Shown here piece by piece: positions 40,155 through 47,364 of a DNA stretch of 64,000 nucleotides. The first letter of the stretch is position 1; every line of letters begins with the position of its first letter. The stretch lies in contig CM000153.2 of assembly GCA_000004695.1 (NCBI GenBank), positions 2,688,001-2,752,000 on the forward strand, given 5' to 3'. The translations under genes were made by a program, and so were the position numbers. Source of the DNA: Dictyostelium discoideum (lineage: Eukaryota). The notes beneath the pieces were generated by a model. It searched no databases. It saw only the letters and a list, made by a program, of their open reading frames with translations, and had not been told where the DNA came from.

Positions 40155-43002
40155 TTAATGTTTATTTGGATTTTTTTTATATACTGTACCAAATATACCT
40201 TTAATTTGATCAGAACTAACAGGCATGGTTTGATTATAACAATCACTTGTAATATCTTGAAAATGTTCATACTTTTCAATGAAAACTTCTTCCAATCTTT
40301 CCCAAATAACAAGTATCAATTGTGAATCTTTTGTAATATTCTTTTGAACATTTCCTAATGCTTTCAATAAACCTTTTTCAATCTTTTTTTTTTTTTTTTT
40401 TTTTTTTTTTTTTTTTTTTTTCAAAAACATGAAATAAAAATAAAATAAAAGAAAATTAGAAAATAATAATTAATAATTATTCAAAATTAATATAATACAA
40501 ACATTTTCAGTTTTAAACTTTTCAACAATTTTTTTAAATTGTTGTTTTGAATGAGATTGTTGGAATTGAATATCAGAAGGTGGTAAAGTTAATAATAGTT
40601 CATCCATTTTTGTGTAGTATTCAATTAATGGTTTGAATTTGAGATCAATTAAAAAGTTTACATAGATTTCCAAATTTTCTTTAAAAATTGATTGAGAGGT
40701 ATCTTTATGTTGAGTTAGACAATTGATATTAAGTTCTTGTAATTTCAAATAAAAGAAATAATGATTCTCAAGTTTTGAAATGAATTTGTATTTTTTATCC
40801 TCTGGTAATTTCTCTACCAAACCATCCAACCAATTAAATAGCTCTAATATGATCTTCTTATAGGATGATTCAATTAAAAGAGTGCTTGAACCAGTGTCTG
40901 ATTCAGATTTATACTTTTGTAATTCTTTAACAAAGATATGAAAATTTCTAAAATGTGGTAAAACACCACATCTCTTTAAAGAGGTTTGAGTTGACTTAAT
41001 TGCATCAACTTGAACTTCTAAAAATTTGTTGAATAAAGTTTTTATACTTTTTTGTACCTCTGCCAAAATCTTTACAAAATATGAAGAATGATGAGAATCT
41101 TTACGTGAATGAGCGTCAATATATAACTCTGTTTCAAGTAACATTGTTAAAAGATAGAATGGATTAACTTGATCAGCTTTTTCAACCATATTTATTAATT
41201 CTGGTACAACTCCATTAAACATTGCACTTAATATTAAATCCAATGGTGCATCTGGTGATTCTTTAGGTGGTGGTGGTGGTGGTGGTGGTGGTGATGATTC
41301 TTCTGTTGATGATAATGAGCCATTGACTGCATTATTTGGAGATTTTGGACTATTTGAATCAATTGGTTTATCATTATCCAATGAAGGTGATGATGATGAA
41401 TCTGGATCTTTTTTTTTTTTATCTTTTTTATCTTTTTTATCTTTTTTATCTTTTTTATCTTTTTTACTTGATTTTTTATCTTTTCTATCCTTACCATCTT
41501 TATTACTACCACTACCACCACCACTACTATTTGAATGATGATTACGTTGACCAGCTAGTCTTGGTGGGTCTTGATATAAAAAGAAATCCATTACAAAATT
41601 TTGTTTTGTCATTATATAAATTTCTAAACAAGATAATGCATATTTAAATAATCTATTGATTTTACGTTTTTTAATACCATCTTTGCCACTACTACTACTA
41701 CTACTACTACTACTATTTTTAGATGGTGTACTTGTTGATGTATTGTTATTTAAACTATCAATTGATTTCTTTGATGAAGATGAAGAAGAAAAGAAATCAT
41801 TTTGATCCTTTGATTCTTTTTCTAATGACTGTTGAATAGTTGAAAAGAAAAGTTTAATATCACTTTCATAAATTCGACGAAATGCTTTAATATAAGAAAC
41901 AATCAATGGGATTAACTTTTCATGATCCATCTCTTTCAACCAATTAACCAATGGTTTAAATTTTCTTAAAAGGTCATAGTATTCCAAGTAATCTGGAAAC
42001 TTTTCTTCACCGGGTGTTTGAGATGTTGTTGTGATGACATGTTTACCAATTTCCTTATCAGTGGTTTTAAATATATTTTCAACCAATGCTGCGACCTTTC
42101 TTGCAAATGAGATTTTATAAGTTTCAAATACCTTTCTTTGATCTTTAACAGCCATCATATTATCCATACCACTCTTTAATTTGGTTGTTAATGCACGTTT
42201 TAAATCTTCAGCTGCTTCAATTGCCATCTTTAATCCCTTGGTATCGTTAAATTGTGGTGCTGTTAGTGTGGAAATTGTGTTGTCTGATAAAGTCATTAAC
42301 CCAATTAAATTATTCAATTCAGAGTATAATAACTTTTGATTTCTTGATACAATCTCCATCTTATTATTCTTTCCTTCAATATGTTCAATATATTTCTTCA
42401 TATCTTGTAATTGTTTATTATAATACTCAATCCATGCCGTCACACCTGTTAAATGTGTACCATCTTTATCACCTAATTGACTTATAACTTCATTAACTCC
42501 AACACCTGAATCTAAAACACCAACAATCATTTCCTTTAAAAAAAAAAAAAAAAAAAAAAAAAATTATTAATTATTAATTATTATAAAATAAAAATTTATT
42601 TTATTATATAATTTAACATACAGTTTCTAAAGTTGATAACGTTTTACCTAAACGTTCAGTTAAAATATCAACATCTTTTTCAAATGAGAGATAATTATTA
42701 ATAACATTTTCTAAATCTTCATCACCATCATTATTTCCCAAACTAGTTGCACTACTACTTAGAGTATTGTTTGATGGACCATTGCTTACATTATCATTCG
42801 ATTGTGATAGAAATGATGGGTACTCAAGTATTGGGATATTACTATGATGGTGATTTTCACTATCACTCTCTGAATGTGTGGTTTCTGATGGATCGTATTC
42901 ACTCTCACTATATTGACTATATCTATCACTAAATTGACCGCTATATCTATTATGTTGAATACCCACTCTACTAATACCACCTGAATATCCAAGATGATCC
43001 AT
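40155..43002 (-). CDS. exoc1: Exocyst complex component Sec3 (EXOC1)-like, 3 exons. There is no N-terminal PH (PIP2-binding) domain in this locus.
   Basis: complement(join(40155..40382,40503..42533,42622..43002)), with a GTATGT donor (42621) and a GTTTGT donor (40502). Similarity to human EXOC1 is direct: GVLPHFRNFHIFVKELQ vs GILPFVAEFEEFAGLAE; the terminal exon QLILVIWERLEEVFIEKYEHFQDITSDCY vs [28 protein letters not shown]; and the N-terminal coiled coil EDLENVINNYLSFEKDVDILTERL..NKQLQDMKKYIEHIEGKNNKMEIVSRNQKLLYSELNNLIGLM vs [47 protein letters not shown].. There is an internal S-rich/KDKKDKK low-complexity insert. The last intron's acceptor follows a 45-nt poly-A tract, which is unusual. 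Confidence 0.65.
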
Positions 43003-43378
43003 TATTTATTATTATTATTATTGTTTTAGTTTTGTGTTATATTAATATTAAAATTTATTAAAAACATTAATTAAAAAAAATATAAAATTTATGAATTTGT
43101 TTTTTTTTTTTTCTTTTTTTATATTAATTAATTAAAAAAAAAAAAAAAAAAAAAAAAAATTAATTAAAAAAATAAAAACAATCGACTAACAAATTTTAAG
43201 TTGAAAGGAATAAATAAAAAAAAAAAAAATTTTTTTGGGTGGATTTTTGTATTTTTTTTTTTTTTGGTTTTATTTTTTTTATTTTTTTTTTTATTTTTTT
43301 AATTTAAATTTTTAAAAAAAAAAAAGTAAAAAAGTAAAAAAAACAAAAAAAAAAAAAATTTTAAGAAACAACACTACT

Positions 43379-46300: not shown

Positions 46301-47364
46301 GTAATAATAATAGTAATAATCAAAACAGTAACAATATAAATAGCAATTTAACCAATTCATCAAACAGTGTATCAAATAATCATTCAAATAATAGTAGTAA
46401 TAATAATAATCAAAATGGTAATCAAAATACATATAATGGAGAAGATGAAATTTTAATTCATTGGTCACTACCTAAATTAAGTGAATTAGTTGATCTTGGT
46501 CAATCAAAAAATTTATATGGTTTAGAGAATAAAATCATTGGTTTGGAATCAATGATGTTTTTAGTAGATTGTATAATGGAAGCTCAACCTTTAGTTTTAG
46601 ATTTAATTCCAAATGAAAAAATAATGCAAATTAGTAATTTCTATGTTGAAACTGTTAGTGTTGTTGCTTCACTTAGAAATTTATGTTATAAAAATATAAC
46701 TTCTCAATTTTTAAATGTAATTATTTTTTACTTTTATTATTATTATTATTGTTTATTATTAAAAGTTTAAAATTTATTAATTTAATTTTTTTTTTTTATT
46801 TTTATTTATTTATTTTTTTTTTTTTTCAATAAAAAGTTGGAAAATATACCAAATTTAATATCATCAATTAAATGGGAATTAAAAGAAGCACCAACAACAG
46901 AATCAAATTCATATACAATACCAATTATTATTGAATTTCATAGATTTACAGGTTTATTAGATGAAATATCTTCAAAGAGTAGTTTAATTACACCAAAGAT
47001 TAAAAATTTATTATGGGAAAATACTATTACCTTGGCAATGGAAACATTAATTGATTCATATTCAAGAATTAAAAAGTGTAACTATTTTGGTAGAAATTTA
47101 ATGATGATGGATGTAAAAAAACTTCAAAATAATCTCGAACAATTAACAACAATTAGACCAATACCACATATTAAACATGTTGAAAATTATATTACCGCTT
47201 TCTATCTACCTGAATCTGATCTCTATAATTTGGCCCGTGATTCTGAATATACTATTAAACAAGTGATTAGTATTGTAAATGTTTCAAATCATTTGAAAAA
47301 GAATGAAAAACAAAAATTAATTTCAGATCTTGAAGAATTAGAAAAACAAAGAAAAGAAAAATAA
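43379..47364 (+). CDS. Syndetin / VPS50 (CCDC132)-like subunit of the EARP endosomal tethering complex, 5 exons.
   Basis: join(43379..43895,44014..44575,44741..45897,46019..46716,46837..47364). The donors are GTAATT, GTATGT, GTAAGT and GTAATT. Intron 2 is (ATT)n. Direct similarity to human VPS50: the N-terminal Vps54_N-like DEVYFKEDFDPAFILQNIP; KEKSLDYFQNFHKETIERLKTMLENEVWHKIPLPNNF vs [93 protein letters not shown] vs [53 protein letters not shown]; and the C-terminal LEQLTTIRPIPHIKHVENYITAFYLPESD vs [29 protein letters not shown]. Confidence 0.75.

Follow-up and report, generated by a model that had tools for sequence, protein, structure and literature searches.

Does the exocyst of Dictyostelium discoideum reach its target membranes without the domain through which, in yeast, its Sec3 subunit contacts them, and does the position of the Sec3 gene, head to head with a gene for a subunit of another tethering complex, tell us anything about either? 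Both questions are raised by a stretch of 64,000 nucleotides of the D. discoideum genome (assembly GCA_000004695.1, contig CM000153.2, positions 2,688,001 to 2,752,000 of the forward strand), hereafter the window, in which Sec3/EXOC1 is encoded on the minus strand and VPS50/syndetin, a subunit of the endosome-associated recycling protein (EARP) complex, on the plus strand; all coordinates below count from the first letter of the window. Dictyostelium serves as a standard model in work on exocytosis, on the discharge of the contractile vacuole and on the polarity of phosphatidylinositol 4,5-bisphosphate (PI(4,5)P2), and the models applied to it are borrowed from yeast. There, PI(4,5)P2, Rho/Cdc42 GTPases and Sso t-SNAREs are all ligands of the N-terminal PH domain of Sec3, and the exocyst has its other known anchor to the membrane in the basic C-terminal surface of Exo70. 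A literature search found no paper that states or discusses a PH-less dictyostelid Sec3, although this architecture is visible in precomputed domain tables.

Our answer, which we regard as quite probable when taken as a whole, is that an ordinary head-to-head layout, a Sec3 that has lost its PH domain throughout the lineage and a targeting of the exocyst that does not depend on this domain would together explain the locus. The loss of the PH domain is the modestly interesting part of this explanation; the gene-pair arrangement is uninformative by contrast.

Domain architecture of Sec3

The minus-strand gene (43002 to 40155, product of 879 residues) is the predicted Sec3/EXOC1 orthologue, as had been claimed in the original prediction, whose coordinates for the gene pair all agree on rechecking. 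A Pfam search of the full protein model returned two families, Sec3_CC (PF09763; E 2.5e-35, residues 112-244, profile positions 2-133 of 133) and Sec3_C-term (PF20654; E 3.7e-41, residues 561-854), and BLASTP against human EXOC1 gave a colinear alignment of residues 90-853 with human 164-869 (E 1e-40), so that the coiled-coil and C-terminal blocks of the human protein are both present as described. The human reference sequence was validated by its Pfam domain content (PF15277 31-121, Sec3_CC 185-316, Sec3_C-term 577-871). The nearest public proteins are dictyostelid entries named 'exocyst complex subunit 1', with 80-90 % identity in Dictyostelium species, and both Sec3 and VPS50 are clearly members of known families that are already annotated in public dictyostelid genomes. 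Both are single-copy orthologues, and an exact match to either gene model was not found in the protein collection. Sequence searches of the PDB with the Sec3 protein and with its profile gave no match, and a fold search with the Sec3 model gave weak matches to the CATCHR family (Exo70, Tip20 and the MUN domain of Munc13), weak because the model itself is of low confidence.

The same Pfam search detected no PF15277, the PH domain of Sec3, in the window protein even at E <= 1, and the alignment with human EXOC1 begins at human residue 164, which corresponds to window residue 90 and lies past the human PH domain. The sequence upstream of this point (residues 1-93) is acidic, lysine-free, unconserved and predicted to be unstructured, and is not PH-like. 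Within residues 1-92 there are 21 Ser and 10 Asn but not a single Lys, and the net charge is -9, whereas genuine Sec3 PH domains average 19 % Lys+Arg. When eight dictyostelid orthologues are aligned, conserved sequence sets in at window residue ~91, and everything upstream varies in length as well as in sequence. An AlphaFold2 model built from an alignment of eight sequences shows no secondary structure in residues 1-93, where the predicted local distance difference test (pLDDT) score is 24-30; beyond residue 93 the model is all-helical, and nowhere does it contain a beta-strand at least three residues long.

We built a local hidden Markov model (HMM) of the PH domain from 35 Sec3 relatives and ran it against six-frame translations of the 64-kb window and of six orthologous loci, those of D. 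firmibasis (L001), a D. discoideum-like assembly (L006), P. violaceum (L005), Tieghemostelium (L004), Acytostelium and Cavenderia. No PH-like coding segment was found among the 4,875 pieces searched (best E 0.22). Together with the Pfam result, this bears out the earlier statement that the stretch from the coiled-coil exon to the next gene holds no PH-coding exon.

Three further features of the Sec3 protein deserve mention in their own right. First, the otherwise unconserved N-terminal tail contains a short motif, NIPILEYPSFL, at residues ~53-66 (window ~42846-42805, minus strand), with counterparts in P. violaceum (IPLPDIL) and Tieghemostelium (PIPDIL) that likewise stand ~30-40 residues before the coiled-coil; this recurring motif may be a linear binding motif. 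Second, residues 160-276 of the coiled-coil (window ~42440-42090, minus strand) weakly match Vps52_CC (E 0.0045), a family matched also by 16 of 54 Sec3 relatives with E down to 5.7e-11. The signal is best taken as a trace of the ancestry shared by the exocyst and the complex known as GARP (Golgi-associated retrograde protein), and it would tie Sec3 to Vps52, not to its neighbour VPS50. Third, a 9-bp tandem repeat, TTTTTTATC, present eight times on the plus strand at 41415-41489, codes for a (KDK)n tract at residues ~475-503 of the low-complexity linker, in a region with 21 Lys+Arg per 50 residues, and further repeats in the same linker, (GGT)9 at 41266-41293 and (ACT)9 at 41688-41715, code for a Pro9 run and a Ser run. 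The lysine-rich tract is confined to group-4 Dictyostelium orthologues. We considered it as a polybasic membrane contact that might substitute for the PH domain and set this idea aside, the tract being encoded by a 9-bp repeat and absent outside group 4; a neutral repeat expansion appears more likely.

The PH domain across relatives of Sec3

Word-indexed homologue searches did not get beyond the same 11 dictyostelid proteins, whether the query was the Sec3 protein or a dictyostelid profile, because the candidate list was swamped by low-complexity words. An exhaustive HMMER search with the dictyostelid Sec3 profile against 1.8 billion representative proteins gave 795 matches and reached other eukaryotes. 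PF15277 is missing from all 11 dictyostelid orthologues, in which Pfam recognises the two core domains and nothing else. The original prediction had offered two options, that the lineage's Sec3 lacks the domain or that the domain is encoded elsewhere; the first is what we find at the level of the Sec3 gene, and the second is weighed in the Discussion.

The picture differs outside the Dictyostelia. Among the best 54 non-dictyostelid matches of the 795, all contain Sec3_CC, 53 of 54 contain Sec3_C-term, and those that can be named are annotated as exocyst subunit 1. PF15277 was detected by Pfam in 33 of these 54, the closest one included, while the local PH HMM matched 38 and left 16 unmatched; some of these 16 PH-less models may be truncated gene models. 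Sporadic PH-less Sec3 models thus occur elsewhere, for example in Ancoracysta twista (P0018, a complete transcript open reading frame) and Calcarisporiella thermophila (P0032). Two amoebozoans, Mastigamoeba balamuthi and Planoprotostelium fungivorum, are among the PH-bearing close relatives that can be named, and the Sec3 of Mastigella eilhardi has a truncated copy of the domain. With these amoebozoan relatives, too, the window protein can be aligned only from just past their PH domain and linker. Given that the domain is kept in other Amoebozoa (Mastigamoeba, Planoprotostelium), the simplest reading is that it was secondarily lost on the lineage leading to Dictyostelia, and judged from the sequences at hand the loss appears to be real and lineage-wide at the level of the Sec3 gene.

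The Sec3 gene model

Sec3 is modelled with three exons and two GT..AG introns of 88 and 120 nt, and its ATG (43002-43000, minus strand) is directly preceded by five in-frame stops, one sense codon lying between these stops and the ATG. Exon 1 (42622..43002) holds codons 1-127, which cover the acidic disordered N-terminus and run into the coiled-coil, and ends at a GTATGT donor. Intron 1 (42534..42621, 88 nt, GTATGT...AAAG, with a T26 run on the sense strand) is the sole in-frame donor/acceptor pairing with a consensus GTATGT that retains the conserved LETEMIVGVLDSG, and its position is matched by an intron in D. firmibasis, P. violaceum and the D. discoideum-like assembly. Exon 2 (40503..42533, codons 128-804) contains the remainder of Sec3_CC, the low-complexity linker and most of Sec3_C-term, and is separated by intron 2 (40383..40502, 120 nt, phase 0, GTTTGT...A38-G) from exon 3 (40155..40382), which supplies codons 805-879 and the stop. 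The exon structures and start codons of Sec3 and VPS50 are predicted models.

It could be argued that the true Sec3 transcript has further 5' exons that code for the PH domain and were overlooked by every gene model, the more so as the available models are mostly computational and three public ones (P0010, P0011 and P0002) are visibly wrong. We find this barely credible. Apart from the stops directly upstream of the ATG, the start and the first residues (MDHLGYSGG...) are conserved among group-4 orthologues, and the space before the neighbouring gene holds no open reading frame of more than 44 codons in any frame. The introns of dictyostelids at these loci measure 69-165 nt, which makes a distant exon beyond a 4-kb gene on the opposite strand implausible. 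Furthermore, what lies upstream of Sec3 differs between species: VPS50 on the opposite strand in Dictyostelium and P. violaceum, a histone deacetylase gene in Cavenderia, 4.2 kb without a called gene in Acytostelium, and in Tieghemostelium a contig end after 974 bp. None of these neighbourhoods contains PH-like coding sequence, and their variety makes a missed upstream exon very unlikely.

At the other end of the gene, exon 40155..40382 does belong to the main Sec3 reading frame, as had been proposed. The Pfam Sec3_C-term match and the alignment with human EXOC1 both run without a break through the junction of residues 804 and 805, and a phase-0 intron interrupts the gene at the identical KTEN|IEKG site in 6/6 other dictyostelid loci, where it measures 69-83 nt and is unrelated in sequence. 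All orthologues retain the terminal exon of ~75 codons. The A tract that precedes the last acceptor had been described as A45 and is in fact A38 (T38 on the plus strand, 40384-40421). Its counterpart is A15 in the closest relative (L006) and is absent from the other species, and the window contains 53 A/T runs of at least 20 bases, with a maximum length of 60; we thus rejected the tract as a special feature, and it appears to be a local, strain-level homopolymer expansion of no evident significance.

The errors in the public orthologue models are of several kinds. In P0002 the reading frame runs on for six codons past the last donor, into the terminal intron (VCIILR). The Cavenderia model P0010 gains ~90 hydrophobic residues at its N-terminus, an implausible extension assembled from extra exons (compare L003, 10001-10854), and in P0011 a Nop53-like gene (PF07767) that lies upstream has been merged with Sec3.

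The head-to-head gene pair

The plus-strand gene is the predicted VPS50/syndetin orthologue, an EARP-specific subunit, in agreement with the original prediction. It runs from the ATG at 43379 to the stop at 47362-47364 and is modelled with five exons coding for 1155 residues. Pfam detects Vps54_N (PF10475; E 7.5e-109, residues 113-401, profile positions 1-291 of 291) and Syndetin_C (PF10474; E 3.4e-79, residues 913-1146, profile positions 1-234 of 234), and no VPS54 C-terminal family was found in the same scan; it is Syndetin_C that distinguishes VPS50 from VPS54. Exon 1 (43379..43895) contains an (AAT)38 array (43433-43548) that codes for a long poly-Asn stretch near the N-terminus, followed by the start of Vps54_N, which continues in exon 2 (44008..44575). 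The tblastn alignments of the protein to L001 and L006 break at residues 172/173, the junction of exons 1 and 2, and alternative in-frame acceptors (44014, 44026) and an alternative donor (43889) leave this boundary uncertain by 2-8 codons. Exon 3 (44741..45897) is preceded by an intron with a GTATGT donor at 44576 and a single candidate acceptor before 44741; most of this intron is occupied by (ATT)38 (44624-44737). Exon 4 (46019..46716) holds a low-complexity linker and the start of Syndetin_C, which spans the exon 4/5 junction, and exon 5 (46837..47364) carries Syndetin_C through to the stop codon. Intron 3 starts with GTAAGTAAAAATA and then enters an A37 run (45910-45946), which, like the runs in the Sec3 introns, indicates that long intronic homopolymers are routine in this genome.

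The two ATGs are separated by a spacer of 376 bp (43003..43378) with 33 G/C bases (8.8 % G+C), close to the ~375-bp AT-rich region first reported, and both 5' untranslated regions and both core promoters would have to fit inside it. Two non-A/T islands stand out in the spacer, CAATCGACTAACAAATTTTAAGTTG at 43179..43203 and GGGTGGAT at 43237..43244, and both are candidate cis-elements. In the near-identical relative L006 the first is kept with one mismatch and the second is kept as well; neither is clearly conserved in D. firmibasis. The orthologous spacers measure 381 bp in L006, 361 bp in D. firmibasis and 274 bp in P. violaceum.

The original prediction took this arrangement to suggest a shared bidirectional promoter and co-regulation, a suggestion that was drawn from the proximity of the two genes. 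In its strongest form, the spacer would be a selected unit that coordinates the expression of exocyst and EARP subunits and thereby holds the pair together. The retention of a short spacer from Dictyostelium to P. violaceum and the conservation of both islands of a 91 % A+T spacer in a close relative would fit such a role, as would the enrichment of conserved divergent pairs for functionally related genes in fungi and metazoans (PMC2871058). We nevertheless consider it improbable. By tblastn, VPS50 was not found within 10 kb of Sec3 in either Acytostelium or Cavenderia, whose upstream regions are those described above, and the islands are not clearly kept in D. firmibasis. Divergent orientation is common, accounting for 15 of 39 adjacent gene pairs in the six related loci, and Sec3 and VPS50 serve different complexes in different compartments.

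The wider neighbourhood points in the same direction. VPS50 lies tail to tail with a gene for trehalose-6-phosphate synthase/phosphatase (TPS; 47507-49979, minus strand), with 142 bp between the stops, and the TPS orthologues in the related loci belong to the Glyco_transf_20 and Trehalose_PPase families. The order TPS, VPS50 (on the opposite strand), Sec3 is common to D. firmibasis, the D. discoideum-like assembly and P. violaceum, so a functionally unrelated gene is kept in the same block as the pair, which makes the pair a case of generic synteny. A larger block, eIF5A-TPS-VPS50-Sec3, is intact in P. violaceum, and in Tieghemostelium the block is rearranged, with five other genes separating TPS from Sec3. 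From these gene orders, TPS-VPS50-Sec3 appears to be a synteny block of one dictyostelid sub-clade and not a deeply conserved unit.

That two genes for tethering subunits should be adjacent is a post-hoc observation about a pair that is not conserved across Dictyostelia. By our own rough estimate, with ~24 genes for multisubunit tethers among ~12,500, two of them would be adjacent in a few per cent of genomes. The head-to-head pair is an ordinary layout, a routine product of a compact genome, and tells us little; Dictyostelium has indeed been singled out for its very short intergenic distances (PMC2871058). Literature searches turned up neither expression data nor dictyBase identifiers for Sec3 and VPS50. 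A scan of the region for sigma-70 promoters and terminators stayed at the level of shuffled sequence, these being bacterial signals that are irrelevant to a eukaryote. On the reading that we prefer, the two genes need show no co-regulation beyond that of two constitutively needed trafficking genes.

Other features of the window

The window as a whole is extremely A+T-rich, with 14-38 % G+C per 1-kb bin, and shows features of the dictyostelid type, namely short GT..AG introns, poly-Asn coding stretches and abundant homopolymers. It was assigned to a group-4 Dictyostelium of the D. discoideum complex. Its largest other gene (19152-29585, minus strand) codes for a giant HUWE1-like HECT ubiquitin ligase with DUF908, DUF913, UBM and HECT domains, in a single open reading frame block of more than 3,477 residues whose 5' end extends upstream of 29585. 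Additionally, the window encodes a paxillin-like protein with five LIM-domain matches (3906-5567, plus strand), a Sel1-repeat protein (31814-33577, plus strand), a leucine carboxyl methyltransferase-domain protein (34034-35623, minus strand) and a BTG-family protein (60024-61460, plus strand).

Discussion

We lean towards the view that Dictyostelia are a natural counterpart of the yeast sec3-deltaN truncation, a lineage in which the PH domain of Sec3 was discarded outright and not relocated, and in which the exocyst would be recruited independently of PI(4,5)P2 and Rho binding by Sec3.

Several observations weigh against our overall reading and should be kept in mind. The AlphaFold2 model of Sec3, built from eight sequences, has a low overall confidence (mean pLDDT 53). 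The loss can be dated only as having occurred after the divergence from Archamoebae and Variosea, and no finer, because Myxogastria (Physarum) were not identified among the matches. The short spacer shared by Dictyostelium and P. violaceum is compatible with some constraint on the gene arrangement. Finally, the sole proteome-wide test for a stand-alone dictyostelid PH protein scored 545 word-sharing candidates and found plant and metagenome fragments only, and it is too insensitive for exclusion.

With 545 such candidates scored, a diverged, separately encoded PH protein could have escaped. In such a split-gene arrangement, another dictyostelid gene, located away from Sec3, would code for the Sec3 PH domain, and the protein made from it would associate in trans with the exocyst or with Sec3. 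Short PH-only PF15277 proteins do turn up in that search, from plants such as Zea mays and Morus notabilis, and some of these may be fragments or partial models. We consider this unlikely for Dictyostelia, as the search with the PH profile gave no dictyostelid protein, though NCBI dictyostelid proteomes were in the collection, and neither the sequence within 10 kb of Sec3 in the six species nor the window itself contains a PH-like segment.

If the domain was indeed lost outright, the contribution of dictyostelid Sec3 to the exocyst would be limited to its CorEx coiled-coil and its helical CATCHR core, with ~90 acidic, lysine-free, disordered and fast-evolving residues in place of the PH domain. 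The exocyst would then be targeted to the plasma membrane and the contractile vacuole without a Sec3 PH domain, and by analogy with yeast its membrane recognition would be left to the basic C-terminal surface of Exo70 and to contacts with Rab or other GTPases. Alternatively, the task could fall to some lineage-specific adaptor, possibly one that engages the acidic N-terminal tail of Sec3.

One implication concerns the models in current use. The binding of PI(4,5)P2 by the Sec3 PH domain has been invoked for contractile-vacuole exocytosis in at least one review on Dictyostelium (PMC9344532). A Sec3 without this domain, if true, would make the Sec3-PH/PI(4,5)P2 arm of the yeast model inapplicable to Dictyostelium, and Exo70 or a lineage-specific factor would have to carry membrane recognition. 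A naturally PH-less Sec3 would also make it possible to ask what this domain is really needed for.

How does this locus compare with systems that are already known? As a gene pair, Sec3/VPS50 resembles bidirectional pairs with spacers below 1 kb in its orientation, and the 376 bp between its ATGs fall within the operational definition of such pairs (PMC2871058); it differs from them in that it is known here from its layout and is not kept across Dictyostelia. The VPS50 protein shares Vps54_N and Syndetin_C at full profile length with VPS50/syndetin (CCDC132), and differs only in its lineage-typical poly-Asn and Ser/Asn-rich insertions.

With human EXOC1, yeast Sec3p and plant SEC3A the dictyostelid protein has in common the Sec3_CC (CorEx) and Sec3_C-term (CATCHR) domains, whereas it has no PF15277 and begins with ~90 acidic disordered residues instead; in group-4 species it also differs by a long low-complexity linker with (KDK)n, poly-Pro and poly-Ser tracts. 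Its closest functional analogue would be yeast sec3-deltaN, in which the core that assembles the exocyst is kept and the module for PI(4,5)P2, Rho/Cdc42 and Sso is gone. According to the summary in PMC9344532, such cells are viable provided that Exo70 is intact, and Sec3 and Exo70 both bind PI(4,5)P2, anchoring being abolished only when the two are impaired together (He et al. 2007 and Zhang et al. 2008, as reported there). The yeast allele is, however, a laboratory truncation, whereas the dictyostelid state would be natural and lineage-wide and is known here from sequence. A natural precedent is found in the PH-less Exo84 of Arabidopsis and Trypanosoma (PMC11555703), where particular lineages have likewise lost the PH domain of an exocyst subunit and kept the CATCHR core. 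That case concerns another subunit, in the other subcomplex of the exocyst and in other lineages.

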